This document shows, piece by piece, positions 12,866-41,406 of a DNA stretch of 64,000 bases. Made by a program: the position numbers and the translations under genes. The stretch's first letter is position 1. Each line of letters begins with the position of its first letter. Source of the stretch: Rhynchopus sp. YZ270_cl-10 (Eukaryota); contig OZ037834.1 in NCBI GenBank assembly GCA_964035575.1, positions 2,108,001-2,172,000 on the forward strand. Reading direction: 5' to 3'. The notes below the pieces were generated by a model. The model did no database searches and was not told the origin of the DNA. It saw only the letters and a program-made list of their open reading frames with translations.

Positions 12866-14176
12866 GGAAGGAGGATTGTCCATTAATCTGGGGTGATTTG
12901 TTCAGGGAAATAGCTTGGGTACTTTTGCTGGTTTCAAAACCAGAACGAGCTGGTTTACTGGTTTGGGCCAGGGCCTTCAACCATCGACAAAGTCTGTCCA
13001 CAGTTTTGTCGAAGTAAAAAAAAAATTGGCCTCCCCGCCCGCGCGCGCTTCGCGCGCGCGGGTGCAGCATCACACAGGAGAGAAGCTCTCAGGGGTGTAT
13101 ACAGGTTTTGGTGTATTTCAATACAAGCATTGTAGCCACTGGTGACCCACAATCCGTAGTGGGTATCGCACCTGTCTTATCAGTAAGCTCAGTACATTTA
13201 CAACAACAAAGGTCCCTGGCGAAGCCACGGTACGCAACATTTCAAATATTGCGCATACCATGGCGCTTTATTTACAGCCAAACTATGTCAGGGGAAGGGT
13301 GGGATGCTGCGCAGGCGCACAGTACGCTACTTTTTCCTGGCTCGCTCCTCGTTGGGTTCTACGAGCTCTGTCCAAATGGTCACAGTGAATCACAGGAGAA
13401 TGTTAAAGTTAAAACCCTGACCCGAGTTTCTCCCGTGGACTACCCTGCAACTCGGTCAGACATAAAAGGATTTTGCCAAATCCCATTTTTTTTTTTAGGA
13501 TTTTCCATACACTTTTTAATCACGACAAGATGAAAACTGTCACGAAATTTGTGCACTTTTGCATATTTTACAAAAATGTCGCCAGGTGACATTAATTCTG
13601 GGACACACTGTGCATGGTAAACGAATGACTAGCATAGGGCGTTTTTTATAAGTAAGAGAAAACCGAACGGAGTGGGAACGTAGTGAGAGCGCAGCGGAAA
13701 CGATAGTGGGAACGCAACGAGCTTTTTTCATAATATTTTATTCTTCCCCACAAAATATCACGCGCAGAGAAAGACTCGTTTTTCACACAGCGCGTCCGGT
13801 TGTTTGTTTTTCTCAAACGACACCTTTTTTCAAATTTTTTCCCCCCCGGTATCACATATGATACTGTTTTCCATGGATACACATGAAAAGGAGTTCCGTG
13901 CTATTCACAGAACTCGATAGGCGATTGAGCTTATCTAACAACAACCAAAACAAAAGAAAGTACAAAAGAAGAGAATAAAAAATGCAGGAAAAATAGACAA
14001 AGAGAAAAACAAAGAGATTTTGACAAAGTGAACAATAAAAAAAAGTGAACAAATACGTGTTTGCCTCGGGCTTTTGCTACCCCCTAACCCCCTCCCCCCA
14101 TCTCTCCTCTCTCATCTCTATCACACACAGACTCAACCCTGCATTTATTTTGCCCACTCTCCCCCCCCCCCTAGGG

Positions 14177-16612
14177 CAGTGCTTTTAGGAAACGTGGGGA
14201 AACGCACGTTTCCCAAAAAACTGGGAAACGGAAACGTTGGGAAACGGGAAACGTTGGCGTTTCTTTGTTGGAAACGTTACGAAACGTGGTTTTGGGAAAC
14301 GTGAAGGGAAACGGGGAAAACAAAAAAAAACCCCCCGCGACGATGTCTTTATCACCACAGCGTCACAACAGGAACAACATCACAAAAAATTGTACATGAG
14401 TGGTGACAATACTCAGTTGGGACATCATAAAAGATGTCGGGATGGCTTCCAAACTGATCTGAGGACAGATACTGCACTCCGCCCAAGCTGAGATTGTTAC
14501 AACCCCACCCAAGAAAAAACAAGTCGCTGAGATTTTTTTTTGAGGTCAACCTACCTGGGGTTCTTTATTGGATACCAACAAAGACAAAAAAGTAGGTGTT
14601 GAAAATGCGCAGTTTCAACAGGAAAAAAACACAATGAAAACAAAGAACGTAAAAAAAAACAAAAAAAAACAAAAAAAAAATCATCCTTCGATTCCATCCA
14701 CACTGTCGTCTCCTAGCACCACCTCGTCAAGCTCCCAGTAACCGGCCACGACGTGGGTGGTGGACGTGTTCCTCTTGTTGTACAGAATGCGTGTAAGTTT
14801 GTCAGCCGTGCTGGCTGACAACCCATTGCGCTTCCTGGTTTTTACGTCGCCGTAGCAGCTCCAACCTCTCTCAGCCGCACCAACAGATGAAGTGAGCGGA
14901 ATGTTGGTGACAGTGCATGTGCCGCGTTGTGGATGGGGGCTGCAACGTATTTCCATCTGGTGTTCACCCTGTCTGCAATTTTTTGCTTACGTGCTGCCGT
15001 GAGGAATTGAGTTATGGGTAGCGCTTCGATGTTCTTCTTCAGCTCGGCGAAACCCTCCTTCACGTACTCCACGGAAGCGCTGTTCCCCGACGCGTCGTCG
15101 TTGTCGTAACGCTTCAACACGGTGAAGATCACATCTCCAATGTGCCACGCCCCCTCCAGCTTCTTCCAGAAGGCGTCCTGGAGCACAACCGACGCCCATT
15201 CGGTAGCTGTGGCCTTCGCATCCGCACTCCTTAGCTGAGCCTTCCACTCGCCAAAGCCTTCACCAGCAAACATCTCACGCAGCGGCCCTTTCAAGTCCAG
15301 CAACCGTTGCATCATGATAAAAAAGCTTCCAAAGCGAGTGTCCACAGGTAGCAGCAGCCTCTTGTCGGACCTCTCCTCAAGAAGTGTGACCAAGCGCTGG
15401 CGTGTCTTCACCCACTTCGCCAACGCCGTAGCTTTGTGCACGACTTCATTGAAGAATTTGAATTCTTCCTTTGTGCTCGCTTTGGAGGAGTCACCTAGAT
15501 CTTCTAAAAGAAGATCATAGGTGTGGAGAACACAAACAGACGTTAACACCTTCTCAACCCGGGCTCGAATTAAGGGGAGGGCCTCCTTGCATGCCCCATC
15601 AACACAAATGTGTATCAGCTTCGACCTTACCTCCTCGGGGATAAGCACAGGAAGGGAGCAGATATAGTCTGCGATCGCGGCCATAGTTTTTCTCTTGCTC
15701 GTCTTGTTATCTACATAGTACGTCGATGTGGACGTACTCACGATCCCGTTAAAGATGGACCTGTCGTTGCAATCAGTCCAGCCGTCCGACAATAACGACA
15801 GCCCGAACTTTGCTTCGGCAAGCATGCCCTTTTCGCAGAGTTTGTCCATCTCTGCGACGTACTCCTGCAGTAGTTCGCCTGCAAGGTCGTCGGGGGATGG
15901 CGGCTTGAACTCGGATGCCTCAGATTGAGACATCCGCGACAACATCATGACTAACGTCATGAATGAGCGGCTCTTTGCTTTCCGGAAGGGAATGCACTCT
16001 TCGTAGAAGAAGTCCCTAATACTCTGCATGGCTTCGATCTTGGTGGTTACGCGTGTGAGAAAGGGGTCTAGCGACGTTTGTTTGTTGTCCTTCTGCTGCG
16101 TTACCTTCGCCTCTGTGTTCTGCAACTTCGCTTTTGCTATTTCAAACTCATCCTTCTTGTCGTCTTTTGGGGAGCACGCAGTCACTGACGACCCCTTCCC
16201 AAGGAGGTGTTCTTTGATCCTCCCCGCAGACGACACTGAGAATTTCTTATCACAAAAGGTGCACTCCACCTTCCGGAGCTTTGTCCCTGCACCTTCCACA
16301 ACCTTCACGTAGTCCCACGCGTCATCCGCCTTCCTTTTGGGCATTATGCAAATCTACGGTATAAATGTGTTTGTCTGAAGTGCAGAAAGCGTCGGAGAAC
16401 GGGGGAGAAAAGAGAGAGGAGAAAACAAGCGGGGAGGGGATACACAGACGTGCGACTTTTCGCGAGGGTCTTGAGCGTTTTGTCAAATACTATGTGTTAA
16501 CTAAAGAAAACCCCTTGCAACGTTTCTTTAGCGTTTCCTCAACGTTTCCCAAGAATCTGGGAAACGTCAACGTTTCCTTTTGGGAAACGTTGACCGTTTC
16601 CTAGGCGCACTG
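14177..16612 (-). mobile_element. hAT transposon, 18-bp imperfect TIR, 8-bp TSD CCCTAGGG
   Basis: CAGTGCTTTTAGGAAACG (left) vs CAGTGCGCCTAGGAAACG (right, reverse complement); CCCTAGGG at 14169-14176 and 16613-16620; subterminal GGAAACG repeats. Confidence 0.93.
14681..16344 (-). pseudogene. hAT transposase (BED finger, DGW catalytic motif, C-terminal dimerisation region) with a probable internal deletion/frameshift near 14900
   Basis: W-x-Y...CTFC...HL BED finger, 'LLSDGWTD', 'CVLHTYDLLLED', 'DTRFGS', 'AHALSP'; the 'SSVGAAERGWS...RNGL' segment follows at once in another frame and the usual WW-containing linker is missing. Confidence 0.85.
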
Positions 16613-16615
16613 CCC

Positions 16616-17813
16616 TAGGGGAGGGTCACTGCACGTTAAATCTCTCGATAAATGCGATTTTTCCGATTTTGATCCTCAGAACCGCAGAAGTCCCCGAAAA
16701 CTATACCAAACCACCTAGGGGACCCAAAAAACGCACCAGCGCCCCAGTTTTGACACAGAAACACTCAGATGATGCCTGAAATGCAATTTTAAAAGAGTGC
16801 CTACAGAACTTGTACCTGCCCACCCCTGTAGATAGAGCAACTCACACATCCATCACGCCTCAGTGTGTGCCAGGGGCCAGAAAAGCCCCCAAAGCCACAT
16901 ATTTTCACCCCAGAACCTATCCCGAGGGGTACCCAGGCTGTTTCGGGGTGTTTAGAGGGACTTGGTGGAACTTAGAACCATGTTTCAAAAAGGGTACAAG
17001 TACTGTGCCAAGGGTTTGCCCTCTCAAGGGACCAAGTACTTGTACCCTTTTTGAAACATGGTTCTAAGTTCCACCAAGTCCCTCTAAACACCCCGAAACA
17101 GCCTGGGTACCCCTCGGGATAGGTTCTGGGGTGAAAATATGTGGCTTTGGGGGCTTTTCTGGCCCCTGGCTCACACTGAGGCGTGATGGATGTGTGAGTT
17201 GCTCTATCTACAGGGGGGGTGGGCAGGTACAAGTTGGTGGTCACTTTTAAAAAACGCAAAAAAGTCGCTCAGAAGTGGTCAAAAGTGCCCAAAACCGGGC
17301 GGAATTCGATTTTTGGGGTCCAAATGGGCCTATGGTGTGGTTTTTTTTGACCTCAGGGGGTATTTTTTGATTTATTGCCTACTTCACGCTTTTTGACGGC
17401 TTCAGATACCTTAGGGTGGGAAAACCCTTGGCACAGCACTTGTACCCTTTTTGAAACATGGTTCTAAGTTCCACCAAGTCCCTCTAAACACCCCGAAACA
17501 GCCTGGGTACCCCTCGGGATAGGTTCTGGGGTGAAAATATGTGGCTTTGGGGGCTTTTCTGGCCCCTGGCCCACACTGAGGCGTGATGAATGTGTGATTT
17601 GCTCTATCTACAGGGGTGGGCAGGTACAAGTTCTGTAGGCATTTTTTAAAAATTGCATTTCAGGCATCATCTGAGTGTTTCTGTGTCAAAACTGGGGCGC
17701 TGGTGCGTTTTTTGGGTCCCCTAGGTGGTTTGGTATAGTTTTCGGGGACTTCTGCGGTTCTGAGGATCAAAATCGGAAAAATCGCATTTATCGAGTACAG
17801 TGACCCTCCCCTA
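16616..17813. mobile_element. TAGG-type non-autonomous element E in a poly-C tract, with long internal inverted repeats
   Basis: 16-bp TIR TAGGGGAGGGTCACTG / CAGTGACCCTCCCCTA; arms about 16645-17015 and 17425-17795 are inverted copies; C-runs at 14161-14171 and 17814-17830. Confidence 0.88.
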
Positions 17814-20756: not shown

Positions 20757-20773
20757 AGGCGAGAAGACTTTTC

Positions 20774-21734: not shown

Positions 21735-21932
21735 GGTTTTTTTGAAAAGAGCAAAAAAAAAAAAGGCAGGATTTTTAAAAATTGAAGACATATTCCCTCA
21801 ATATCTCAACACAGCAAAAAGAAATTGGCAAAATAAAAAAAAAGGCCAGAACACAAAAAAGAAAAATGCTTTCGTAGGGTCATTCTGTTGGGATAAATAA
21901 AAGAGGTAGAGGGGGGAGAAGATACAAAAAAA

Positions 21933-23888: not shown

Positions 23889-24394
23889 GGATGGGGAGGG
23901 GGGTGATGAATGAATCCTTCTCTGCCTCCCCCCCTTCTGTTCCTAAACGCATACAGCGACTGAAACATTGATGCCCAACTACTATATTTTCTCTGTAGAT
24001 ATTCTTTTTGTTTCAGTGCGTCCGATGAGGGGTGAGGCATTTTGCACATTTCAACTTCTCTTTAGAAATGACATGAAAACGAAAATCCTTTTTACATTTT
24101 TTGTGGTATTTTCTTTGGCCCCACGCCAAAATAAAAAAGAAATTGTGAGCAACCATTTTTTCCACTTCTTCTTTTTGCTGTATTAATTCGCTCCCCTTTT
24201 CTTCCCTCCCCTCCCCTCCCTTTCATGCTCTCTAAATCTAAACACAAAACAAAGCCTGAAAGAAGCAGATGTGCCACAATGAGTTGTTGTGGCGAGGCGT
24301 TACCTGCTGTGGTCATGTAGACAGCGCCCCTGCCGCGGGCAGCAGGCAGAAGGCACCACAGCCCCCATTTCCCCCCCCCCCCCCCCCCCTTAGG

Positions 24395-27300
24395 CATACC
24401 TAGAAAGCGAATATGATATTCGGCCTATATTCGGATCCAAAATTCTTGGGCCATATTCGGCCTATATTCGGATCCGAATATCGTATTCGGATCCGAATAT
24501 AGGCCGAATATGCATATTCGGCCTATATTCGGATCCGAATATAGGCCGAATATCATATTCGCCCTATATTCGGATCCGAATACACAGAATCTAGACTGCA
24601 GAAAGGGTGTGAGTGAGTTTGGATGGGGGTGGGTGGGGACATGAGGTAGCGAAACGCGTGTATTGGGGGGTGGGTGTGGGGGTCTTTTGATGATCGGTGT
24701 CTTTGCAAAAACAAGAGAAGTTGAAAGCACAAAAAGCACTGTTGATGGAAAAGAGGCAATACAGAAAGTATCAAGGCTGTCCTTACAGACGCATGCCAAA
24801 GCGTCCGCCACGTGGGTGTGGACTTAAGATTGAAGTAGTAGTAGGAGTAGTGCAAACAAAGAGGGGTTTTTTTTTGTTTTTTTTTTTTGTTTGCTCATGA
24901 AAAAGCAGCTCGAGATGATACCAGCATTTAGAACACTGGTATCATCTCGAGCTCCTCGGCGAGAGGCTCACAGTCGGAATCTGACGATTCCGACTGCTCC
25001 ACCGCCTCGCCGAGGAGCCCCTTCTTGTCCTGAAGCAATCCAAGGAGCTTGCCGTTCTTCCGCAGCATCAGCTTCTCAATAAACTTTTCCTTAGATAAAT
25101 TCGAGGAGCGTTTATTTTTCATTGCACTTAAGGAAGAAAATAATCCATCAACTGAGGTTACGCTGATCGGGGTTGAAAGCCATCCATGGACGTGTGGCGC
25201 TAAATTCGGGAAGCGTAACCCTCCACTGCCTCTTGGACTCCAGAACTCGAACAGGTCAGTAACATCCTGAAACAAAAGGGCTTCGGCGTTGAGGTACAGG
25301 ATGAATTCGTTCCACACGGTCGGTTCGCGCAAAGCATAGAAAATAGCACCCCATTTCTGCATCTCTGCGTCCTGACACTGTGGCTCCCCTGTCGGCAGGT
25401 CATCATCATCATAGTCCCCGGAGAGGATGACATTGCAGTCAAAGAATATTAACTTCTCAAACCGGTCTCTCGACTTGTACTCGGCCCATGCTGCTGATAA
25501 ACACTCGCGCATATTCGCAGAGTAGTCGCTGTTGGTGAGTACCCTCTGAATCTCTGGAAACCACCAGCTCGCTGCAATTTTGGTGCCGGGATTTTGCACC
25601 TTTCTGAGGAATGGAAGAAGAGGTTCGATATCGTTTGCAAATGCCGACACTTCGCGTACATGATCCTGCCACCTGTCCGTTTTGACAAGTTCAACGAGGG
25701 AGAGGAGAGACTGGTTCTTTTTCTTTCTCCCCATTTCACTATCGAGGAAAGATACCAGGGGTTGATGTCTGTCTCTAATGTGTATAGCAAGGTCGGCCAT
25801 GGCTAACCACCGGGTGTCGCTGGTGAGTGATGGTGTCTTCGGCGATGCCGTATCAACATTCTCAACGTCAACATCGATCGTTTCGCTCAACACCTCCTTT
25901 GCTTTGGCCAGAAGCTCTTCAATATCATCTATTTTCGGCCCCGGAAGCAAACGTTGCATGCCCCTGACACTTTTTTTCTCCACAGCGACTTTCAAACGAA
26001 TCCTGGTGTCTTGTGTGTCCGCCGCCGACTCACGCGCGTTGCTGACAGAAGATTCCTGGAAATTGAGCCAGCGCACTCGTCGGCTTTTACAAGAGAAAAG
26101 CTGACTAAACGCTGTACAAAAAACATATGACAGCTGGTAGTTAATTTTTACGTGTGCTTTCAGTGCCGAATTTGTCACGTGGCCAAAACACCAACTGGCT
26201 TCCTCGTCAGACAACCCTACCACATTTATCGATCCATAATCAGCAACCACGGGAGAATGCGCGATATTAAATTTTTTTCGAGCTGTGTTGATAGCATCCT
26301 TCACATCTCGACCACAGTGGACTTCTCCAGTATCTTTTACGTCCATATGAATGAGGAGGGCTTGGCCTGCAACGAACGCTACAATGCACAATGTCGAAAA
26401 ACCCAGGTGTCTCTGTCCTGCAATAAAAATTTTGGGATAGTGGTCATTTGTTTATTAGCATACCCGATCCATCTATCCCGAGAGGGATTGGTTTCCCTTC
26501 AACCAACTTCAGTAGCACACCCTCGATCTCCTTCACGAACTTCGTGGAGCGGCCCAGGACCGTTTTCCCGGTTGGGAAGTCCTCTCCGAAGAGGGGACGC
26601 ACTGGCAGCGACATAATGTCGGCTTGGCGTTCTGTGAGTCCGCAGACCAGCACAGCCAATGCCCATGTTGTGACAAACGCCGCCAACCCCATCACCGGCG
26701 TCAACACCTGCTGCCGCTTCTCCTTCGTGTCACCAACTGGAGCTGCAGCCTTCTTCTTCTTCTTCTTCTCCCTACGCTCATTATTTTTGTGGCGGTCGCT
26801 TTGGACGTGTACCTTGGCGGTACTACTTTCACCGTGTTGCACCACTCCACGGCAATGTACACAAAAAAGAACTGTGTCGTCTCCCTTTCGCCCTGTTTTC
26901 TTCGCTGCTGCCTTTTCCTCGAAGGGGAGCTCATCAACCTCCATTACCTGAGATTTTTTTGTTATTTGTTACATTTTTTTTATTTTTTATTACTTTGTAT
27001 TCACCCTAGTCACTTTAGCGCCGCCGTAGCAGTGTGGCCCCTCATTTTGTTCTATACTGACCGGTTTTTTAATACATTTTTAGCGATACATACTTCATAA
27101 CACTCTGCAATTGATCGGTCGTACTTCTCCAGCGCGGTTAAACGACCCTGCGCGGTTACCGACGATCCCGCCTTCGCCTCCGCCGACACCTCCTTCAGCT
27201 TCTTCCGAGACTCTATGGTCTCTTTGCGCTTCTCCGCCGGGGTCTTCTCTATCGCGCCGCCTTTCTTGGCTGGTGGCTTGCTTGCAGTCTTTGTAGAAGG

Positions 27301-27852
27301 CTTATTCGTTGCCTTCTTCGCTGATTTTTTCACTCTTTTCTTTGTTTGTGCCCTGGTGGAAGAGGAATCGCTCGCGTCCGTGTTGCTCGAGACAATGGTC
27401 GTCTCGTCGACCTTCCTCTTTCTGCTTTTTGGGCCCATTGATGATATTTTTTTTAGCGTTTAAACTGATAAATTCCTGTTGATAGTGTAGGGGTGCACCG
27501 AAAAGAATTCACCGAAGCACGTCATATATTGTGCAAACCTAAACGCGATAATTTTCGGTGAAAATTCATGGAAAGCCCGCGGGGCTTCGAAATACAAAAG
27601 TGACTTTCTTTCTTCTTTTTTTTTGGACTTTTTTTTCTCTTTTTTTCCCCTTCCCCCCCATTTTTGGATTTTCCGAGCCAATTGCGGAACGTGGTGGGGT
27701 CTATTTCAAAAATATGATACATTCCTGTTGGTGATACGTGTATTCGGGTCATATTCGGCCTATATTCGCCTATATTCGGATCCGAATATAGGGCGAATAC
27801 GCATATTCGGATCCGAATATAGGCCGAATATCATATTCGCTTTCTAGGTATG
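24395..27852 (-). mobile_element. Putatively autonomous hAT-like transposon with CATA...TATG termini and 6-bp TSD CTTAGG
   Basis: TIR CATACCTAGAAAGCGAATATGATATTCGGCCTATATTCGGATCC at both ends; CTTAGG at 24389-24394 and 27853-27858; palindromic subterminal TATTCGGATCCGAATA repeats. Confidence 0.92.
24928..27438 (-). CDS. hAT-like transposase, three exons (27438-27094, 26947-26464, 26417-24928), about 772 aa
   Basis: Introns 26948-27093 and 26418-26463 (GTATG...CAG on the minus strand) join three ORFs in frame; zinc finger 'LFCVHC...HVQSDRHK', 'GIDGS', 'VADYG', 'WCFGH', 'DTRW', 'FW...FPNLA...LSTPISVTSVDGLFS'. Confidence 0.85.
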
Positions 27853-27854
27853 CT

Positions 27855-29047
27855 TAGGGGATACGACTCCAGCCATTTTGGCTTGGACCAAACGCACGGA
27901 AAATTCATTTGGCATTATCTGGCCATCTCCAAGGCAACTGCGGGTGAAAAACACCCTCAGAGTGGGTCACAGGGGGCCTGTGGGTCGAAAAACGACCCAG
28001 AAGCCACCCCAGAATACAAAAAAATGGAAAAAAATAGTGAAAAAACGGCTTTTTTCACGTTTTGGCCACTTTGGGCAAAATAGCGATTTTTCGAGAAAAA
28101 AATCAAAAACCGGGATATTTTTTGACATCACAAAGCCTCCTTTGGCACAAATATACCCCAAAAGTGGCCTGTGAGTCCATTCCAACCTGTTTTGGACATA
28201 TTTGACACTTTTGGAAGTGTTTTTTTGGTGTTTTTAGGTCAAAAAAATGCCCAAGACGTCCCCAAGACATCCCCAAGACACTTTGCACACCCCCTGTTAC
28301 GGTCATATTTTTTTCGTTTTTTTGCCTGAAACCCCCAAAATACCCCTCCCGGACCCCACATAGTCCCGAATATCCATCACACACCCACTCAGAGTGAGTA
28401 GAAGCACCCCAAAAAAAATATTTTTTAAAGCCCTTCAACTTCAACATGGATGCTGCCGAAACTGAAGCACAATTTTAGGGCTTTAAAAAATATTTTTTTT
28501 GGGGTGCTTCTACTCACTCTGAGTGGGTGTGTGATGGATATTCGGGACTATGTGGGGTCCGGGAGGGGTATTTTGGGGGTTTCAGGCAAAAAAAACGAAA
28601 AAAATATGACCGTAACAGGGGGTGTGCAAAGTGTCTTGGGGATGTCTTGGGGACGTCTTGGGCATTTTTTTGACCTAAAAACACCAAAAAAACACTTCCA
28701 AAAGTGTCAAATATGTCCAAAACAGGTTGGAATGGACTCACAGGCCACTTTTGGGGTATATTTGTGCCAAAGGAGGCTTTGTGATGTCAAAAAATATCCC
28801 GGTTTTTGATTTTTTTCTCGAAAAATCGCTATTTTGCCCAAAGTGGCCAAAACGTGAAAAAAGCCGTTTTTTCACTATTTTTTTCCATTTTTTTGTATTC
28901 TGGGGTGGCTTCTGGGTCGTTTTTCGACCCACAGGCCCCCTGTGACCCACTCTGAGGGTGTTTTTCACCCGCAGTTGCCTTGGAGATGACCAGATAATGC
29001 CAAATGAATTTTCCGTGCGCAAAAAATGGCTGGAGTCGTACCCCCTA
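27855..29047. mobile_element. TAGG-type element A, a near-perfect fold-back palindrome of about 1.2 kb
   Basis: TIR TAGGGG(A/G)TACGACTCCAGCCATTTT; arms are mirror copies around a centre at about 28430-28480 (identical ORFs called on both strands). Confidence 0.92.
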
Positions 29048-29654
29048 CCCCCCCCCCCCCCCCCTTAGGGGGTATCTTACACGACGCGGTCCAGAGGCAC
29101 CTGACAAGTGAAATGACATGTCATAAAAGTGACAAGTGAAATGACATGTAAATCACTTGTCATGACAAGTGAACCACTTGTCATGACAAGTGAATCCTTA
29201 GGGTCCCTGTTAACCCTGGATTCTTTTTATTGTTATTTTTTGATTAGGGAGTGGGTTGCGCAAGCAAAGTAAGGCAATGGGGTGGGGAGTGGGGGAAAAA
29301 AAGGAAAAGAAAAGAAAAAAAAAAAAAAGAAAAGTATTGTTTAAAGTGACGTAAGGACACGACTATGCGGTTCACTAACCCTGTTAATACCCCCTACCCA
29401 TATTACCAGGGTTATAACCATCCCGTTTGAGGCATCAAACGATTTTTTTTTTTTGATTATGATAGCATTGCTCTCATTCAATTGTCACAGCGTCGTCGCC
29501 TTCGTCGTCTTCGTCGTCATCCTCTTCTTCCGAGGCGTCGTTCTGCCTCGCGTCTTCGGGTGCGACCAACTTGATTTCCTTTTCATTGAATATGAAACTA
29601 TACCCTGTGCACCACCTATCCACCGACAGATTTTTTGATTTTTTGATTTTATTC

Positions 29655-31214
29655 CACAGTTAAATAAAGTATACGAAGGATTTGGCACTTTTAGCGTGAT
29701 TCTTTTTAATGATAATTTCACGCCGTGTTTTTTTCACAAATAAAAACCACGCTAATTGAACTTTATTTCACGCGTTTTCACTTTTTTTCACTGCAATTCC
29801 TTAGGAGCGTGATTTTATTTTTGTTTTTTTCACGCCAAAACAGGGGTTTTTTTTGGCGATAACTTCACGCTAAATTTTGGTATATCCTGCACCACCACCC
29901 GCCTAAAAATTGAAAATTTCGAATTTTTTTTGCACTTTTCCCATTTTTTTTTGACACACGCAACATGCCGAAGGATCTAAGACGCAAACGGTCCTCCGAC
30001 AAGAGATGGACGAGCGCTACAGTGGTTTTGCTGAAGGACTGGCATCGTCGACACCGTACATCCGTGAATGGGACCGCTTTTTAAGGAATTCATTGGCAAG
30101 CCCAACGGTAAGCCCACGGAAGCCGACTTTGTTTTGTGCATAGTGCATCTCCGTGACGATCTCACGTACAAATCGTCGTCGTAATGGACAGCGTTCAGTA
30201 AGCTGAGCAGCATATTGGCGAGGAAGTATGGGGTGCAACTGCAAGACCAGTTTGCGCAGGCTCGTGTGTCTCTTGAAACAAAACCAGACCGGCTACCGAC
30301 ACGACAGTCCAAGGCACTCCGCACTTACGAAACAAGAAATCGACTCCTTCATTACCTATGAAGGCGGAGGACACACCACCCCCTTACTTCATTGTGAGGA
30401 AGGCGGTGGCTGGCATGATATTCTGTGATGGGCGGGGATCTTCTGAATGTCTCGCTCTTGCACGATAGCCATTTCCCGACCTCCGCTAGCACCCGAGGGG
30501 ACCCTGAGGGTGGGGAGACGTCGGGATGTAGCTTTGTGTACCTTTGAGGCAGCTTTCAGAACCCGACCACACGCTACACGCTATGCGTGGGCTAAATAGG
30601 CTACACGCTGTATGCGCTACACGCAAAATGCTGTTGTGTATCAAAACGTGGGTTGCGTGTACTGCATGGGGTCACCTGTGCACCACCCTGTGTGGCTCAC
30701 ACATGGTTATGACACCCCGAAAACGTGTATCCCACCCCACATATAAGGGTAGGCCCAGTTTATCGGGTTTTTGCAGGTTTCCCCGCAGGAGGGTAACAGG
30801 TCTGGAGGGACCCTTCAGCCTTTTTTAGCCTCCCTCCAGCCCCCTCAGGTTTGCCAGCCCCCCCAGCGGGAGTCCCGCTATCCTAGCTAGGGGTCCGTGG
30901 GATTCCCGGTAGCGCTGGCGGGAGGGTAAGGAAAGCTACCTGGAGGGACACATACTCGTTAGTTATTGCACAATAAATGAGTCACGCTAAAAGTGCCAAA
31001 TCCTTTCGTATACTTTATTTAACGTGAAATAAAATTACGTATTCAACGCCTTTTAGCGAATTTTTTTGCGATACTTCACTTATTTTTTTCCCAGGCTCGT
31101 GGATTCAATTTGCCTCGCTTCGCTCGGCAAATTAACTACCACTCGCCTGGGAAAAAAATGCGTGAAGTTATCGCAAAAAAAAACCACGCTAAAAGGCGTT
31201 GAATAAATAGTTAT
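29655..31214 (+). mobile_element. Crypton-like element: inverted subterminal repeats and a terminal bulged hairpin
   Basis: About 29659-29699 is the reverse complement of about 30983-31023; hairpin 31041-31204 has a CCTCGCTTCGCTCGG apex and is followed by AAATAGTTAT. Confidence 0.55.
29965..30470 (+). pseudogene. Decayed Crypton-like tyrosine recombinase, N-terminal part
   Basis: Stitched frames give 'YIREWDRF', 'YKSSS*WTAFSKLSSIL', 'KQNQTGY...SALTKQEIDSFI', 'YFIVRKAVAGMIFCDGRGSSE', which from memory resemble eukaryotic Crypton recombinases up to the first catalytic Arg; stops and frameshifts are present. Confidence 0.55.
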
Positions 31215-33015
31215 TTTTGCTTTTAAAAATGAACAAGATAAAACAAAAAGCTTGCGTTTCTTTTATCGAACAGGTTTTATTCTCCGCCCCGTACCCAAAA
31301 CATAAACACCACTGTGAATCAGAAAAAATATTTTCCCTTTTCTTTTTTCTTCCACACACGCTTGTTTTTGTGCTTCGTTCATTTTTTATTAAAAAAGCTT
31401 TGTTTCGAGTGCGAAACGTTTCTCCATGTATTGCACGGGAAACAACATGACAAACAGGTGCAGGGTGGTTCCGTGCTTACCATAGAACCTGGCACCTTGT
31501 GTGTCTCCCAAAAACCAAAAAAGCGTTGTGTGTGAAGTTTTGAAGGAAGGAAAAATAAAACATCACCTTTTGTTGTCTTTTACATTTCAAATTTTTTTAA
31601 AAAATGAAGCGTCAGTCCGTGAGTGAGAGCCCTTCGCAAAAGTCCTTACGTCACTTTAACCATACTTTTCTTTACCGTTCCCCAGTCCCCACCCCATTTC
31701 CTTACGTTGCCTGCACAACCCACTCCCTAATCAATAAAAGAAAACCATCAGATAGCCGCCACTACCCACATCAGGCTAAAAAAGAAAGAGATAAAAAGTA
31801 CATCATTTTACATTTTTTTACTTCATTTCATGTAGGAATAAATGAAATCATGAGCTCACAGGCATTCCTCAGGTAAATCACTTGTCATGACAAGTGATTC
31901 ACTTGTCATGACAAGTGGTTCACTTGTCATGACAAGTGAGTCACTTGTCATGACAAGTGACCACTTGTCATACATTTCACTTGTCATTTCACTTGTCACC
32001 ATGACAAGTGAAATTGGTCCTGGACCGCGTCGTGTAAGGGGGTGAAATGGCCAAAAAATCGAACTTTTTCGCCTGGGTGCCAAAAAAGGCACCAAACCAG
32101 AAAATATGTCCCTTGAGACCCCAAAAATCGAATTCCGCCCGGTTTTGAGCACTTTTGACCACTTCTGACCGACTTTTTTGCATTTTTTAAAAAGTGACCA
32201 CCAACTTGTACCTGCCCACCCCCCCGTAGGTAGAGCAACTCACATATCCATCAGCCTCAGTGTTAGCCAGGGGCCAGAAAAGCCCCCAAAGCCACATATT
32301 TCCACCCCAGAACCTATCCCGAGGGGTACCCAGGTGGTTTCGGGGTGTTTAGGGGACTTCGTGGAACTTAGAACCATGTTTCAAAAAGGGTACAAGGACG
32401 TGGTCCCTTGGGAGGGCAAGCCCTTGGTACGAGTTGCTGGACACTTTTTGAAACATGGTTCTAAGTTCCACGAAGTCCCCTAAACACCCCGAAACCACCT
32501 GGGTACCCCTCGGGATAGGTTCTGGGGTGGAAATATGTGGCTTTGGGGGCTTTTCTGGCCCCTGGCTCACACTGAGGCGTGATGGATATGTGAGTTGCTC
32601 AACCTACGGGGGGTGGGCAGGTACAAGTACTGTAGGCGCTTTTTTAAAATTGCATTTCAGGCATCATATGAGTGTTTCTGTGTCAAAACTGGGGCGCTGG
32701 TGCGTTTTTTGGGTCCCCTAGGTGGTTTGGTATGGTTTTCGGGGACTTCTGAGGTTCTGATGATCAAAATCGGAAAAATTGCATATCGAGTACAGTGACC
32801 GGGGGGTGGGCAGGTACAAGTTGGTGGTCACTTTTTAAAAAATGCAAAAAAGTCGCTCAGAAGTGGTCAAAAGTGCTCAAAACCGGGCGGAATTCGATTT
32901 TTGGGGTCCAAATGGGCCTATGGTGTGGTTTTTTTGACCTCAGGGGGAGTTTCCCAATTTATTGCCTACTTCACGTTTTTTGACAGCTTAAGATACCCCC
33001 TACCCCCCCCCTAGG

Positions 33016-33887
33016 CATAGGTGCCCGCCGAGTCGTTTTTGGGCGAGTTGTCGGAACTTTACGATTTCACCTAACAACTCGCCCAAAAACTCGGACAACT
33101 CGGCCACAACTCGCCCTATACTCGGCACAACTCGCCCTATACTCGGCACAACTCGGCCACAACTCGGCCACAACTCGCCCATTTTTACAGGCAAAAACAT
33201 ACAGGGATGGGAGGTGACGTTGTAAGGTTACACACATGTAACGTTGGTACAACACATAATCTCAAGAAAAACAACCAGGGCTAAGGCCAAACGCCACTCA
33301 TTACATGCACCTTGTCATATGACTAGTCATAGGTGGTAACTAGGTCGTGGTGGTCCATGGGCCACCGTGCACACTCACGGTTTTTGGTAATTGCTGGGGG
33401 GAATGGGATATACTCCGTACATGGATACCCACACAGAACACACGGTTCCCCAGACATCTGTCAGGCAATCACTGATTCACTTCACACAGGTCGGGCAGGC
33501 GCTGCCTGCCCATCCTCTTTTCCTGTCTGCTATCGATTCCAGGTTCATAATGTTCACACGTTTAGTCAAAATGCTTTGGGCGACGACTTCCTTTGGGATA
33601 CACAAAACCACACAAAGCGCACATTCACAGACCAGCTGTGAAGCGTGGGATGCACAAGATAAAACGTGATGTGGTGTACCTGTGTACCTGTGTACCTGTG
33701 TACCTGTGTACCTGTGTACCTGTGTACCTGTGTACCTGTGTACCTGTGTACCTGTGTACCTGTGTACCTGTGTTTTTGTAGCCATAAAAAATCCCAAAAA
33801 AAAAACAACTCGCCCAAAAAAAATGGGCGAGTTGTTGGCCGAATTTGGGCGAGTTGCCGAGTTGTTTTAACTCGCCGGGCACCTATG
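33016..33887. mobile_element. Non-autonomous CATA...TATG element, 6-bp TSD CCTAGG
   Basis: TIR CATAGGTGCCCG(C/G)CGAGT; CCTAGG at 33010-33015 and 33888-33893; ACAACTCG subterminal repeats. Confidence 0.9.
33675..33772 (+). repeat. (TGTACCTG)n microsatellite
   Basis: Directly visible, about 12 units. Confidence 0.97.
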
Positions 33888-33889
33888 CC

Positions 33890-35528
33890 TAGGGGGGTCC
33901 GTCCGGCCGTTTTTGCTGTCCCAAACCACTTTTTTTTGTAAAAACCCGCGAAAAACCCGAAAAAACACCCCAAAAGACCCCCAAACCCCCAAAAAATCAC
34001 CCAAAACCACGAAAAACACACTTTTGAGCACTATTTCGTACTTTTTTCTGATTTTTTGGTGTTTTTTTCCGCTTTTTCCGCCTTTTTCCATGTAATTATA
34101 CCCCCTAATATGCCTATAGAATCCCTGTACTGCTCACTGAGACAGCATAGCGACCAGAGGCTCCTTATTCATCGTACCGGTGTCTTCATCGTCAAGGGGT
34201 GCACAATCTGCCGCAAATTCCCGCAACTCTGTCTTTGTGAAAAGATGAAGCAATTTAGTGTTGTACTTTTCAAGTTGCTACTTCTGGGTACTTTGCATGG
34301 ACCTGCCTTTGTGGTGCGCTTGGTGTATCCTGCGGCAAGTTCTTCCCTTGAGAAAGACGGAACCCAACCTAGACTGTAGAGGATGTCTAGGTTCCAGCGA
34401 CAGTGAGTCGGTGTTGTCGGGGTGCTGGCTCCTTCCGTGGTGGCTTGCAACTTGGTCAAGGACACCGACAACGGATTCGCAAGAATCATTGGTCATAGGA
34501 GGAGGCAAGGAAGGCTTTACTGCACTTAGGCACAGGGTACGTTGTCATTTTCAGGGACCAAAAAGCCCTGGCAAGTGTTGCAAGTACGATTTTCCACAGC
34601 TCGGGAGGTCTGTCAGGCAATTCAGAGGGATTTAGACACTTCTGCGACTGCCTGAACACGCCTTTTAGGGTTTTTATTTTGGGTGCGAAATACGTCAAAA
34701 GGATGGGGGGAAATACCGTTATTTTAAGCGTTGCAGACACAAAAACACCCTCAAAAACCCCCTAGGGACCCCAAAAAGCTGCAAAATCCACACATTTCCA
34801 CCTCGGGACCTCATTGGAGGTGGGCCGAGGTGGTTTTTTGGTGTTTTGAATGAATTGGTATTATTTTTTTTTGGTAAATAAATGGTCTTCTGCTAGGCGT
34901 TGCATAGCCGTTGCTTAAGTGTTGCATAAGTGTTGCATGGCCTATAAAACCCTCCCAAGTGCCCAAAATGCTATTTTTCACCCTACATGGGGTCTGGGGG
35001 ACATTTTCCTGGGTGTTTGGAAACCATTCCGACTACCTTGGCACTTTTTTGGGGGTTTTCAGGTACAAAAAAAGTCAAAAAAGTGACTATAAAAAGGGTA
35101 CTTTTAAGCGTTTGGGGCACACACACCCACTGCAAAATGCATCTGGTACTCACACAGGACCCCTAAAAGCTGTAAAAACTATATATTTCCACCCTGGGAC
35201 CCCACCGGATGTGGACTGGGGTGTTTTTCGGGTGTTTAGAAGGATTTTTGTCTGATTGGAGAATTTTTTTGGTAAGTGTTGCATTTTGGCCCATGTTGAT
35301 GACGATTTGATGACGCTATTTTTGGAGATTTTTCACAAAAAACCGATTTTTTTTAATCAGGAAAGTCTCTGTAGAGGTTGTCAGGTGGTTTAATGGGATA
35401 TTTTCGTGATCCCCAGGGCGATTTGCGGCCAGGTACGACCTTTTTAGTGGGTTTCTTCACCTAAATTTCAAAAAAATGGGTTTGGGACAGCAAATCCTTA
35501 AGGAATTCCTTCTACGTGGACCCCCCTA
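33890..35528. mobile_element. TAGG-type element C
   Basis: 11-bp TIR TAGGGGGGTCC / GGACCCCCCTA, bounded by C-runs. Confidence 0.7.
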
Positions 35529-35738
35529 TACCCCCCCCCCCCTAGGCATACTTGTCCCCCCAATATGGGGAGGCCCTATTCCCCCATATTTTGGTACCCT
35601 ACACTTTTGTGGCAAATATGGGGGAAATATGGGGGGAATACAGCAGGAATACTGCACAAATATGGGGGAATATGGGGGATTATGGGGGAATATGGGGGAA
35701 TATGGGGGAAATATGGGGGTGTTTTCCTATTGTTTTCC

Positions 35739-36017
35739 TAGTGTACTATAGTGTACTGGTGTACTAGTGTACTAGTGGTACTAGTGTACTAGTGTACTAG
35801 TGTACTAGTGTACTAGTGTACTAGTGTACTAGTGTACTAGTGTACTAGTGTACTAGTGTACTAGTGTACTAGTGTACTAGTGTACTAGTGTACTAGTGTA
35901 CTAGTGTACTAGTGTACTAGTGTACTAGTGTACTAGTGTACTAGTGTACTAGTGTACTAGTGTACTAGTGTACTAGTGTACTAGTGTACTAGTGTACTAG
36001 TGTACTAGTGTGCTAGT
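35739..36017 (+). repeat. (TAGTGTAC)n microsatellite
   Basis: Directly visible. Confidence 0.97.
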
Positions 36018-36332
36018 AAGTGGGCTATAGGTCAAACGCAGGGGCAATGCTAACCCGTCTGTGTCGAGGGCCTTATCGATGGCACCGGAAGGCTCGATGT
36101 CGTGAAGCTTTGTGTTGAAACCATCTGGGCGGTTAGGCCTGTTGATGCCTGACACCGGTGGCAAAACAGGGGAGTCTGACAGGAACTCATAATGTTACCC
36201 TTCTTTCTGCCCATACCAAAACGTCAGCAGGTTTGCCCTTCTTATAGGGACTTACAACCATGTAATCCTCATGCGTCAGATAAACGTCGAAAATTGTGTT
36301 GGAGGGGTGGGTAGGTAAGTAACGTACAGAAG

Positions 36333-36430
36333 CAGTACACCAGTACACCAGTACACCACCAGTACACCAGTACACCAGTACACCAGTACACCAGTACACC
36401 AGTACACCAGTACACCAGTACACCAGTACA
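36333..36430 (+). repeat. (CAGTACAC)n microsatellite
   Basis: Directly visible. Confidence 0.96.
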
Positions 36431-38979
36431 TCTATTCCCCCATTAAAAATATGGGGGAAATATGGGGAAAATATGGGGGAATATGGGGGGGAAAATCCCC
36501 CATATTTCCCCCATATTTTCCCCATATTTTACCCCTCCCCATAATGGGGGGACAAGTATGCCTAGGGGGGGTCACATCCCATGTAAAAAGTGAGAACAGT
36601 GACCAAAAAAATTTTTTTTTGAGAAAAAAATGGACATCACCCTGAAAAACCAGAAAATATGGTCCCCAGGTGACCTACAATTCAATTCCGCCTGGTTTTG
36701 GACACTTCTGAGCACTTGTGGGGGTCTAATTCGAATTTTTCAAAATAAAAAAAACGGCCTGGGACAGGGTTTGTACTTTGGCACCTTGCAAATCGGGGTG
36801 CAATCAAAACCCATTAAAAACACCGCTGGGACGCATTGAGAGGGCGGGAAAAGTGTCGGGGACACTGTATAGGCGGTTCTGCGCCAAGTCCGCTCTAAAA
36901 TCCTTGTGTAGGCGCAGTGGAATGGCAGTAAAGGCAAAGCGCCGTATCCACTGTGGAATGGGCCTGCTGAAGGTGTCCTCAGAGGCGATTCTGCAAGGCC
37001 TGGGGAGATTGGGTTTAGGAAAACACGCGAAAAGGGTCGGGAAATGACGTGTGTGGTGTATTGAGCCTCCCACACGTACTCCTCTCTGCCGGTCATTGCG
37101 TACGGCTTGTCGTCAAGCAGTATTGTCATTGGAGCAGTGTGCGTAAGTTCCCAATACGGCGTTCCTTGCCCTTGTGAGCTTTGTGGACACCCCGTTCTTG
37201 CTGCTGTATTTCGTGGCGTGCCTGTCCGTCTTCACAAGGGATGTCTCATTCCTCCCACAGTAATCTGAGCGTGGGGTCTGAAGAAGATAAAGAAGATAAG
37301 GCAGATGCGGGGCGGTGCTTTAGTCGAGTCTGCGACTGGACATCCATCTACGTGCCTAGTACAGGGCAATTGCAGACTGAACTGCAAAACCAAGGGGGGG
37401 AATTGGTCATTGCAATATCTGGAAAGTCATACGAGGTGTTTCTTTTAAAAGGGAAGATACCCTGAGGGACCGGGTGAGGCAGTGACGGCAGATCTGCTCT
37501 ATAATTTACACCTGACTAATTTTCCTCCCTAAATTAATCACTCCCTGGCCTATTAATGGTGTGGGTACCTAAGCACGTGTATGCATTGGTCACTACGACC
37601 CACAAAATACAGATGCCAGGTGACCGTCTTGTCTTGTTTTGGCTGTATTCAAACGCAATAAGATGATATTAGTCGAGATGTGTCATTTACTTCCTAAAAT
37701 ATGAGTCATGGGCTGTTGCCATGGCCATATCTCGTTTATGTGCTAAAAATAGGAATAGGCAAGGTACAAACCCTGTCCCACGACCCCTTTTTTTTTCGGA
37801 ATTTTCATTTTCTGGTCACTTCTGGTCACTATTTTTGGTATTTTCGGGCCTCCAGGACGTTTTCCGGGGGGTCTTGGGTAGTGACTTGTGGGGTCGGACA
37901 CTGCTCTGCGCGTAGAATTAAAAAACCCTGAAAAAGTGCACTGTTCTCCCCTTGCACGGCGGGGTCCGCACACCCCGAGGGTCCGTAAAACGGCATGTTA
38001 GGAGGGTCCCTCTTTACGGAGTGTCATTACGTACCCTAGGGTACGTAATTACGGACCCTAGGGTCCGTAATTACGGAGCCTCCCAGGGAAAGGGACTCTC
38101 GAAAAATTTTTTTTGCCCCCGTTTAGGGCTAATTTCGACGATTTGAGGCCATTAAAAGCAAAATTTGGCACTTTTGAGCATCTGTGGGGGTCTAAAACGC
38201 AGTTTAGAGTACCACAATTTTTAGTGGGTTTTACCGAAAACAAGTCAATTTTTGGTCCGAAAAAAAATTTTTTTTGACATCACAAAATTGCCCTTGGTGG
38301 GACTATGTGTCCTCAATGCTGGGCGAAAAATGCAAATATAGCTATTTTTAACTTTCACACACAATTTTAACGGGTTTTACCTGTGTACCTGTGTACAGCT
38401 TATTTGTTGTGAAAGACATCTTCCACCATGCATTGAGGAGGGTAAGACAGTGGTCGCAGTTTGTACTTGATAGCATTACAACATTTAACTTCTCCACGGG
38501 GGTCTTGGGCCGTTCACTCGGTTATACCTTGACCAGCGGAAGAGGCCTTTTTGGTCTCTAGAATATCCGGTATTCCCGAACGGAGGCGCACTTTGTGTGT
38601 TACTACGACCTGGCAATTTCCAGCAGTAGGTTAAGTAATCTTTCTTGTAAATTGTTGGATCATTATCTCCTCAGTGCATGAATGCCCCACGTGACTGGAC
38701 ACTTTTGTGTTTGTCATGTGGAGCTGTGGTTGCTTTTTCACGACTTTTTTCCTTGTACACCAGTGTATCGTGTACCGGGGTACTGGGCCGAAAATACACC
38801 AGTACCCAGGTGCCTGGGTGCCCAGACACACCACTGTACCCAGAATCCAGTCTCCCACCCAGAAAACCTACTCATACACCAGAAAAGTGAAAATAGCTAC
38901 TCGACCAGAAAAGTAGCTGGGAAAAGTTCAGAAAAAGCCAGAAAATTTCAACAAAATGCATTTTTAGGTTCTCGAAGAC

Positions 38980-39265
38980 ACTGGGTACTGGGTACTGGGT
39001 ACTGGGTACTGGGTACTGGGTACTGGGTACTGGGTACTGGGTACTGGGTACTGGGTACTGGGTACTGGGTACTGGGTACTGGGTACTGGGTACTGGGTAC
39101 TGGGTACTGGGTACTGGGTACTGGGTACTGGGTACTGGGTACTGGGTACTGGGTACTGGGTACTGGGTACTGGGTACTGGGTACTGGGTACTGGGTACTG
39201 GGTACTGGGTACTGGGTACTGGGTACTGGGTACTGGGTACTGGGTACTGGGTACTGGGTACTGGG
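38980..39265 (+). repeat. (GGTACTG)n microsatellite
   Basis: Directly visible, about 40 units. Confidence 0.97.
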
Positions 39266-40754
39266 CACCCAGAGAAAGCACCTTAAAAGCAGCGAAGGCG
39301 CAGGTTACGGGGAAGACAAGGTATGTAATTATGTTTAACTTTCAGTTACTAGTGAAGATTGAACAAAAAAATGCCGCATATTTCAACTTGTTCGTGTTTT
39401 CAACTCGAAATAAACGCGTAATGTTCACACTATTAAATAGCTATTTTTTTACGCACCAATCATTTTGTGTCACCTCATGACATGAAGGAGGAAATAGAAA
39501 CAAAGCATTTTGAACACACTTGCGGTTCTGGGGACGAACCGCGCTGCAGAGCCACTCCTCAGGTCGAGGTGTGTGCGTTTCACCACAACCTCTCCCATGG
39601 GTTTTATCGTGTGATGAGTGTTACGTTTCTATTTGGTTCCACAGGCGCTCGTTACCTGCTTCACATAATTCACCTCGCTTCACTCGAACCATTTGTGCAG
39701 CAGGTCACTCTCTCGAACTGGAAAAAATCTATCTTATTTCACGGCAATAAATAGCCTTTTTTATTAACCTCACCTTTCCCGACTACTACGTTTGTATACC
39801 ATAACTTAATCACACCCCACATTTACACTTATCACAGGATCGTGAAGTCTGAACTGCACCCGCGATTGCGATGAGAAGCTTCACCGCGGTCCGACATTCA
39901 ACAACTCAAAATCTACCCGCATCAATCTATTCTGAGTTTGCGGACGAAGATCTGGGTGGAGGGGGGTGGGTACACTTAGTCAGTCACTGCTATAGCCATT
40001 AACCAAGGGAGCATAGCTAGTGCAAGAAATTCGACTTTGGAAACCTTCCGGAAAGTCTGTCCTCTGCTTGCGGAGGACTAGACACAAGAAAATATTGCGT
40101 TCCCCCAGAAAACCAGTGCACAATTTACACTCCTTGTGGGTGGTCTTGTTGCCTTTTTGGTCAACAGTAATTTTGGCCCAGGCATGCTCTTGAAGCATGA
40201 CAATTTAGTGTGTATGGGGCAGGGTGTTGTTTTGTTCTGAATTCTCTTTGTTATAACATCTAAGTCAATCGCGGGTGGTGGTTTGTGTAGCGTGAGGCAC
40301 TCTTTTTAGCAAACTTCCTGCGGCTGCTAAAGTGTTATTTCTTCGGATTTAACAACGTACAGCGTAACATAGTGGATTAGCCTGGTCGACACAACCTTTG
40401 ATAGCTATGGGATAACCAACCCCCTTCGACCCCTTGTGGGTTCACTGAACAAGCCCTAGTGGTAGTTAAACGCGATTGACATTTACATTCCTAAAGATGA
40501 AAGAACAAGACAACACTTCTGTACCCGCGCATCAAAATTGTGGAAAACTTTGCACCCCAAACACCCTCAACAACGCCCGCCAAAAGGCGCCCCTTGTTGC
40601 TGGGACTTGGTTCTCATTGATACACTGCACAGCAGGCATTCCTCTGAGTCCAACGCAGTTTGGCCTGTCTGCAGCGTTGCACCGAAGGTGCACGAAGACA
40701 GGGTCTGGTGGTAAATTTTGCGTCTCGCATTCCCTCAGGGAAGTTTAAAAACTC

Positions 40755-41085
40755 TTGAGCTCGGTTTGTTGTCAAAGACATATTCCACCATGTATTGAGG
40801 AGGGTAAGACAGTGTTCGCAGTTTGTACTTGATAGCATTACAACATTTAACTTCTCCACGGGGGTCTTGGGCCGTTCACTCGGTTATACCTTGACTACCG
40901 GAAGATATTCTTGAGGCCTTTTTGGTCTCTAGAATATCCGGTCTTCCCGAACGGAGGCACACTTTGTGTGTTACTACGACCTGGCAACTCCAGCAGTAGG
41001 TTAAGTAATCTTTCTTGTAAATTGTTGGATCATTATCTCCTCAGTGCATGGTGGAAGACGTCTTTGACAACTAACCGAGCTCACG
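40755..41085. mobile_element. Small MITE of about 330 bp, with a second truncated copy at about 38400-38680
   Basis: Inverted ends GAGCTCGGTT(T/A)GTTGTCAAAGAC...TTCCACCATG; the interior is duplicated upstream. Confidence 0.65.
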
Positions 41086-41368
41086 ACTTTTTTCGGTATG
41101 TAACTTGGGATAGGCCCACATGATCATGGTCTATCATGTGGTACCTGTGTACCACTCGGTTTGCTCCCAGGGCTTTTCGACCAGCAGTCACACATCCAAA
41201 CAGTGATTTCCCACCTTAGACCACGTAATTACGTACCCTAGGGTCCGTAATTACGGACCCTAGGGTACGTAATTACGGACCCGGGTCCGCACTTGAGGGT
41301 CCGTAATGAGGGTCCGTAAAATTTACGGACCCTCGGGTGTGTGGACCCCGCCGTGTGTGACCCCCCCT

Positions 41369-41406
<38 letters not shown>

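Follow-up and report, generated by a model that had tools for sequence, protein, structure and literature searches.

Second-tier transposons at the C-run/TAGG junctions of a nested transposon array in Rhynchopus

Two runs of C within a 64-kb stretch of the Rhynchopus sp. YZ270_cl-10 genome (the window, throughout) hold five non-coding elements with TAGGGG..CCCCTA termini, and four of the five C-run|TAGG junctions carry a second element flanked by a perfect 6- or 8-bp duplication. The reading preferred here, with a probability of roughly 0.55, is that the four second-tier elements sit on the junction owing to a preference of their transposases for a long C-run/TA/G-run target, built by the first tier when it enters a C run. 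All nine elements of a preliminary description of this DNA were recovered at the same coordinates and with the same termini. The stack is also deeper than that description stated, with a third group of elements at base 14 of first-tier ends.

The first tier, in which at least four distinct families are represented among the five elements, is divided between two stacks separated by 6.5 kb, both located between genes in a gene-dense region. The lengths of the C runs (9 to 37) are unreliable, the region of the C19 run differing by two letters between two short-read contigs. The runs and first-tier elements are as follows.

14161..14171, plus strand: C11, the run targeted by first-tier element A
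16616..17813: first-tier element A, non-coding, with arms of 406 bp that are 95% alike; C17 follows
24371..24390, plus strand: C19 followed by T, at the left edge of the second stack
27855..29047: first-tier element B, a 1.2-kb fold-back, 96% self-complementary
29066..33002: first-tier element C, related to A, with an exact 10-bp flanking repeat, C9T
33890..35528: first-tier element D, with an exact 11-bp flanking repeat, TA+C9
36563..41369: first-tier element E
41370..41406, plus strand: C37 followed by TTG, at the right edge of the second stack

Exact flanking repeats measure 18 bp in B, which has a C run plus T on both sides, 10 bp in C and 11 bp in D; those of A and E are unreadable. Judged from these flanks, the duplication made by the first tier appears to be about 10-11 bp. 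A single empty site, ATTT C(n) TTG, together with long duplications yields every non-C letter of the second stack. A model in which TA itself is duplicated and the termini are GGGG..CCCC, as for Tc1/mariner or PHISTA, was also considered, and TA does border all five elements on both sides when they are read in this way; the model was judged less parsimonious for the first tier, since a single C run would have to supply four TA steps and the extra T and TA are left unexplained.

Several known groups can be compared with these elements. Long TIRs of the MULE/Fold-back kind are present in A (its 406-bp arms) and in B (a fold-back over its whole length); the TIRs of D and E are short. A TSD of 9-11 bp would be expected of that group, to be set beside the exact repeats of 10, 11 and 18 bp around C, D and B. 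Academ elements have TAG termini, and the TSD of AcademH is given as 9-10 bp. No coding copy of any first-tier element lies within the window, and none of 73 ORFs of at least 65 aa from the non-coding elements matched a transposase family, one of them giving a sub-threshold, irrelevant Pfam match. MuTAnT, a microsatellite-targeting element with a 9-bp TSD, and its counterparts Micron and TAFT resemble the first tier in their simple-repeat target, a duplication that is hard to read, a repeat that is longer at filled sites and G-rich ends; their target is (TA)n, whereas here it is a C homopolymer (PMC4486113).

Four junctions are occupied by the second tier, two of whose elements encode hAT-type transposases, the other two being non-coding.

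14177..16612, minus strand: hAT with an 8-bp TSD, termini CAGTG..CACTG, TSD CCCTAGGG at 14169-14176 and 16613-16620
24395..27852: CATA..TATG element with a 44-bp perfect TIR, TSD CTTAGG
24928..27438, minus strand: intact gene for a 772-aa hAT-like transposase within the preceding element, exons 27438-27094, 26947-26464 and 26417-24928, two GT..AG introns
33016..33887: non-coding CATA..TATG element, TSD CCTAGG
35547..36560: non-coding CATA..TATG element, TSD CCTAGG

These duplications, one of 8 bp and three of 6 bp, are exact, in agreement with the preliminary description. The left junction of C is the only one of the five without a second-tier element, and right junctions are never used (0/5), again as first described. 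At each occupied site the right copy of the duplication rebuilds the TAGG terminus of the host element, and the left copy begins with 4-5 bases of that terminus. Four second-tier families adjoin four different hosts; because families and hosts all differ, four separate insertion events are indicated. The evidence supports the first tier having come first and the second tier after it. The reverse order, with the first tier inserted into a hAT duplication, was rejected, since the first tier is bordered on its right by a run of C instead of GGG.

The 8-bp element is an ordinary hAT, internally deleted. It has the 8-bp TSD, short TIR and hAT-type transposase of the superfamily; the transposase (16344-14842) matches PF04937 above cut-off (E 8.6e-14) and has suffered an internal deletion before its C-terminal AAERGWS motif, which lies in another frame. 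The affinities of the 6-bp lineage are more complex. Its 772-aa transposase has a predicted acidic triad of D274, D337 and D700, a CxxH motif (CFGH) at 353, corresponding to the C/DxxH that follows the second D, and a C..C/H..H arrangement at 143-168 of the kind expected of an N-terminal zinc finger, though Pfam zf-BED reached just E 0.078, in one homolog. Two of 11 homologs exceeded the PF05699 cut-off, and a profile match to Hermes gave E 1.2e-4. When a model of homolog P0006 (pLDDT 69.5) was searched with Foldseek, the top 11 matches listed were all Hermes (best E 1.8e-8), and the model has the features of a Hermes-type RNase H fold with a helical insertion and a C-terminal dimerisation region. 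The lineage thus resembles Hermes in predicted fold, CxxH and short TIRs; it differs in the third residue of the triad, a D aligned with the Hermes E and found in all 18 proteins with the motif (35 examined), so that it lacks the D-D-E of the superfamily. Its TSD is 6 bp rather than 8 bp. Groups of hATs with 5-, 6- and 7-bp TSDs have been described, and Repbase hAT6 shares the 6-bp TSD, by its description (PMC12730594); that clade lies in the Blackjack-containing lineage. The element is filed as a hAT-like variant with a D-D-D triad; the D-D-D family is also present in D. papillatum.

Occupancy was counted after the second tier had been removed from the window sequence. Four of five left junctions are occupied, against none of the 25 other CCTAGG/CTTAGG/CCTAAG sites in the window, which bears out the earlier report of an association (Fisher p = 1.8e-4; p = 6.7e-4 with each second-tier family restricted to its own target word; p = 1.6e-3 against only the 13 CYTAGG sites inside first-tier DNA, 0/13 occupied); these values are post hoc, with n=4 in one window chosen because the pattern was visible. 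The longer motif C4+(T)TAG4+ occurs five times in the emptied window, always at a junction, with 0.11 expected. Five bare CCCTAGGG sites, where the runs are shorter, carry no element, and the 8-mer is therefore insufficient as a target. Of the two ends, the one following the C strand gives C(n)(T)TAG(n) and the other CCTACC, and this difference in sequence explains the left-only use of junctions. Since C4+(T)TAG4+ is found only at junctions, a sequence preference and recognition of the host element fit equally well. Not all hATs here use the junction: a CAGGGG..CCCCTG hAT-like element at 42001-42559 lies in ordinary DNA.

Beyond the window, other copies of the 6-bp and 8-bp elements were found in 17 and 35 contig records, respectively. 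Read contigs over 24000-35700 show high copy number; among the loose ends listed for them, flanks at element tips were not resolved. When metagenome contigs were scanned for the junction motif, 53 of 64 parts gave 119 loci, judged to be chance matches: apart from two 29-base low-complexity matches they show no relatedness to the window, they encode no relatives of the transposases, and the one TIR-like partner (1 of 120 motif matches) is a short hairpin repeat. The viral_contigs set yielded no relative.

A third tier is made up of two non-coding CACG..CGTG inserts of 3 kb each, one in C and one in E, each after base 14 of one host end.

29080..32034: third-tier element CACGACGCGGTCC.., 2-bp TSD TA, after base 14 of the left end of C
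29345-31655 and 29664-31018: TTAA-flanked elements within the CACGACGCGGTCC.. element
37955..41355: third-tier element CACGGCGGGGTCC.., 2-bp TSD TG/CA, after base 14 from the right end of E

Both inserts stand before AGGGG, in two different hosts, and the other 18 YAAGGGG words of the window have no CACG insert. Their CA..TG termini and 2-bp TSD fall within the definition of CMCT, as given, of CA..TG termini with a 2-5-bp TSD. A broken tyrosine recombinase suspected by eye at 29960-30480 received no support from Pfam or Atlas. The third tier qualifies the claim that the host TIR stays intact: the tip is indeed rebuilt by the second-tier duplication, but two of the five first-tier TIRs are interrupted by these inserts.

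The preferred reading can be set out as a series of steps. TAGGGG..CCCCTA elements lie in C runs, as seen locally; they would cut each run at its 3' edge and duplicate some 10-11 bp, such that later copies queue head to tail. The motif C(n)(T)TAG(n) appears only at the end following the C strand. There the 8-bp hAT and the three CATA..TATG elements, as observed in this window, are centred on the junction TA, and the host tip is rebuilt. Their transposases may choose the site by DNA sequence or shape, and that choice may have been retained because such sites are nearly always junk; in this sense a 'safe harbour' adaptation, as originally proposed, may be involved. Palindromic target preferences are described for hATs, that of Hermes being nTnnnnAn (PMC10368747). 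The CACG..CGTG group, seen twice at base 14 with its 2-bp duplication, may likewise be targeted.

Of the two-tier targeting first proposed, the order, the junction as target, the rebuilt terminus and an excess well beyond that of the six-base word within the window all stand, but motif and host end coincide completely here. First-tier ends might instead attract the other transposases beyond the motif itself, through a TIR-bound protein or a hairpin or G-run structure, with the nearest fitting word then used. Three kinds of element, with 8-, 6- and 2-bp duplications, are indeed found no more than 14 bp from a first-tier terminus, the base-14 position recurs exactly in two hosts while 18 other YAAGGGG words stand empty, and IS5075 offers a precedent in its fixed position in the Tn21 repeat. 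Yet the same protein would be expected on both host ends and right junctions are unused, the window has no first-tier protein among the 73 short ORFs, and the third tier amounts to n=2; attraction to ends is unlikely, if a serious contender. A preference for nothing longer than CYTAGG or CCCTAGGG, combined with survival in a local junk pile and a chance excess in a selected window, seems distinctly improbable. Selection of the window was post hoc, and insertions into the genes around these intergenic stacks would be purged; against this, 13 equally dispensable hexamer sites in first-tier DNA are all empty, and the same rule appears in two separate stacks.

The pairing might also have spread by hitch-hiking, with TAGG, passenger and host moved as a unit by the first-tier transposase. 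TAGG(G) does precede the second-tier element, but these are 4-5 bases only of an 11-16-bp perfect TIR, and four different pairings, none repeated, would still require four targeted founding events, making this very unlikely. That the array is an artefact of assembly at homopolymers and repeats is scarcely credible. Long C runs and tandem arrays are present and the stack is not bridged by any one short-read contig, but the eleven elements all differ, each second- and third-tier one is bounded by matching TIRs and by an exact duplication of its own, and 24000-35700 is covered in all 30 bins and 4/4 runs. Two contigs that start in unique flank cross the C run and enter the CATA element, reaching 16 and 24 bases into it, a hint only, as this falls below the 31-base rule.

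That transposons target transposons is already known, and the preliminary statement that no case with this logic had been described was too strong: Tx1L, Tourist, IS5075 and MuTAnT cover parts of it. IS5075 and IS4321 are bacterial elements with IS110-type chemistry. They enter the 38-bp TIR of Tn21, a fixed position at the end of another transposon and the nearest parallel to the third tier, and interrupt that repeat, whereas the second tier here keeps the host tip whole (PMC6052338). Insertion of Tx1L into Tx1D and of Tourist into Tourist shows eukaryotic elements preferring other elements as targets, but there a retrotransposon enters a host body or a family enters itself (PMC6719617, PMC1635306). 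In the present array the junction used by the DNA transposons consists half of host and half of host target. Dada is likewise a sequence-specific DNA transposon, with a 6-7-bp TSD and tandem insertions at one target, but it targets small RNA genes and has another transposase family (PMC3706591). The literature search found no target made of a host end plus the host's own target and common to two hAT lineages.

A wider scheme is conceivable but doubtful: a genome-wide, three-storey chain in diplonemids in which poly-C specialists create a junction, two hAT lineages (one D-D-D) have converged on it, and a CACG family occupies base 14, each family making the niche of the next. The target preferences of hAT transposases are short and loose. 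If two hAT lineages do select a C-run/TA/G-run site of at least 10 bases, hAT integration that is close to site-specific would have been found in nature. The 772-aa enzyme, intact and recently multiplied, makes such selection testable in vitro, along with the unusual D-D-D site. Diplonemid DNA transposons are barely catalogued; the available account gives TATE, MULE and Helitron ORFs, and in the portion consulted the word hAT is absent (PMC10161547). If true, the preferred reading would also explain the growth of repeat blocks between diplonemid gene clusters.

The stack of nine elements is real and richer than first described. Each element listed in the preliminary description was recovered: five first-tier TAGGGG..CCCCTA elements (A, 16616-17813; B, 27855-29047; C, 29066-33002; D, 33890-35528; E, 36563-41369) and, as a second tier, a CAGTG..CACTG element (14177-16612) and three CATA..TATG elements (24395-27852, 33016-33887 and 35547-36560), whose duplications are exact, 8 bp for the former and 6 bp for each of the latter. 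C and E additionally carry one 3-kb CACG(A/G)CG(C/G)GGTCC-ended element each (29080-32034 and 37955-41355), with a 2-bp duplication, which that description lacked.

The same description placed second-tier insertions at left junctions, the C-run|TAGG edges of first-tier elements, and the counts bear this out. With the four second-tier elements and one duplication copy each removed, the emptied window holds 30 CCTAGG, CTTAGG or CCTAAG sites; 4 of the 5 left junctions are filled, against 0 of the 25 other sites in the window (p = 1.8e-4, like the following values post hoc and from a single window). When every family is allowed its own word alone, p is 6.7e-4. First-tier DNA itself, no less dispensable than the junctions, contains 13 of these 25 sites; all 13 are empty (p = 1.6e-3), and some are TIR copies of a single site. 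Because A to E represent at least four families, with long shared sequence only between A and C, and the second-tier elements share no more than microsatellite, four separate insertion events are indicated.

We favor, at a probability of about 0.55, a sequence read-out of the C-run/TA/G-run motif. In the emptied window C4+(T)TAG4+ occurs five times, against 0.11 expected, always at a left junction, and none of the five CCCTAGGG sites whose runs are shorter is occupied. Second-tier transposases would read the long C-run/TA/G-run without recognising the host element; since the motif is confined to left junctions, such an enzyme would hit almost only first-tier junctions, and on one side only. 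Palindromic target preferences of hATs, though short, are described for Hermes (PMC10368747). The rule is family-specific at best, because the first of these elements lies in ordinary DNA:

42001-42559: CAGGGG..CCCCTG hAT-like miniature element, duplication 7 of 8, in ordinary DNA
57551-58314: CAGGG..CCCTG hAT-like miniature element, in ordinary DNA, no duplication found

The junction motif also occurs inside a hairpin repeat with many copies in one metagenome, unrelated to the window (loci L004, L020, L031, L038, L052, L054, L068, L077, L078 and L100).

Recruitment of the second tier to first-tier ends is a less likely account. It gains strength from the CACG..CGTG third tier, both inserts of which follow the 14th base of a first-tier end and precede AGGGG, interrupting the host TIRs of C and E; by itself, however, recruitment leaves the empty right ends unexplained. 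None of the 18 other YAAGGGG words in the window carries a CACG insert, and the window has no third copy of the element. Preferential survival of insertions in junk DNA is improbable, weakened as it is by the 13 empty sites internal to first-tier DNA, and hitch-hiking, with little support, is very unlikely. Misassembly is scarcely credible: four read runs cover every bin of 24000-35700, and two contigs pass from unique DNA into the CATA element, by fewer bases than the bridging rule requires.

Nested in C's third-tier insert are two TTAA-flanked TIR elements, presumably Kolobok-like by duplication:

29345-31655: TIR element
29664-31018: TIR element

Broken reading frames at 29960-30480 resemble by eye a tyrosine recombinase N-terminus, a reading that neither Pfam nor Atlas supported. 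By its termini and duplication the third tier agrees with the definition that PMC12730594 gives of the CMCT group.

The first tier, A to E, has no recognisable coding content; A has arms of 406 bp and B is a fold-back of 1.2 kb. Stripped of later inserts, the second stack has the order ATTT C19 T [B] C17 T [C] C9 [D] TA C12 [E] C37 TTG. B, C and D have exact flanking repeats of 18, 10 and 11 bp, and that of D takes in the terminal TA of C. We infer a history from a single empty site, ATTT C(n) TTG, which would have been cut repeatedly at the run's 3' edge, each insertion duplicating about 10-11 bp; the scheme would yield every non-C letter of the second stack. The C runs of 17 and 37 exceed that duplication, and run lengths drift; two short-read contigs cross the C19 region with two gaps. 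A TA-duplication model is less parsimonious, as it requires four TA steps pre-existing within the C run. Like the first tier, MuTAnT is described as targeting simple repeats, which are longer at filled sites (PMC4486113), and AcademH duplications are given as 9-10 bp (PMC10045372); MULE and AcademH are candidates for the first tier. First-tier families are clearly abundant, the summed read depth of B in short-read run X1 being more than a thousand times that of single-copy flank, a figure that is no copy number. A and the segment 32094-33002 of C are mosaics of common modules. A site internal to A corresponds to C's right end, and this internal A-like form is seen in other copies (read contigs with loose ends at 32997).

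The 14177-16612 element is a hAT by its PF04937 match. Ten protein sequences make up its family; the 35 contig records that carry them are probably from the window's own assembly. The copy here is deleted, because most members extend beyond the point where it jumps to the C-terminal motif. The longest CATA element, of 3.5 kb, carries an intact open gene:

24928-27438: hAT-like transposase gene, 772 aa, three exons, two GT..AG introns

The other two CATA elements, both short, are linked to it solely by terminus and duplication length. The 772-aa family has six sequences on 17 contig records; that full-length members differ by 1-2 residues, and that a 1173-base contig maps to the element with zero differences at about 19 times single-copy depth, points to recent spread. 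A search among 1.84 billion representatives returned 17 relatives, the named ones all Diplonema papillatum proteins. Their profile matches Hermes (E 1.2e-4), Hermes structures rank first for the predicted structure of the homolog P0006, and the family's Atlas neighbours are hAT clusters. D replaces the catalytic E of Hermes in all 18 proteins with the motif found, among 35 examined. The predicted transposase works like a hAT and is a variant by its conserved D-D-D triad and 6-bp duplication. hAT groups making 6-bp duplications are named hAT6 in PMC12730594, from whose description that length is the likeness.

The window is eukaryotic in type, with many genes and few introns; its eS4 protein scores highest against PDB 6zj3, the Euglena ribosome. 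Together with the D. papillatum proteins as sole named relatives of the transposase, this makes a diplonemid the most likely source. Other features include:

1861-2624: element with inverted ends GTGCGTAATAAGG, no exact duplication found at its ends; internal (CGGGGC)n array, and GGGGTCTGGGGTCTGGG repeated close to both ends
9179-10075: GGG..CCC element, 37-bp perfect TIR, 3-bp duplication TAT; internal C runs (C10, C17) without first-tier insertion
18849-21742 region: 635-aa ORF with P-loop-like motif and no Pfam match
9407-9518, 33674-33773, 35738-36017, 36333-36430 and 38980-39265: GTAC-based arrays

The arrays, perfect 7- or 8-base repeats built on GTAC, are central and common to many non-coding elements from different families. 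Following the 635-aa ORF is a chimera of two nearby genes (4632-5202 and 12515-12902, 97-98% identical), a recent local capture or duplication.

The preliminary description knew of no comparable case. Targeting of one element by another is itself known: Tx1L is reported to insert into Tx1D and Tourist into Tourist (PMC6719617, PMC1635306), and IS5075 into the Tn21 repeat (PMC6052338); Dada is described as a DNA transposon with sequence-specific targeting (PMC3706591). A target made of the host's end and the host's own target was not found, nor were DNA-transposon target data for diplonemids, in literature whose coverage left out most subscription papers and Repbase Reports. Targeting of left junctions by the second tier is strong locally, that is, in this window, and the stack may be adaptive, a 'safe harbour' for the elements inserted there.
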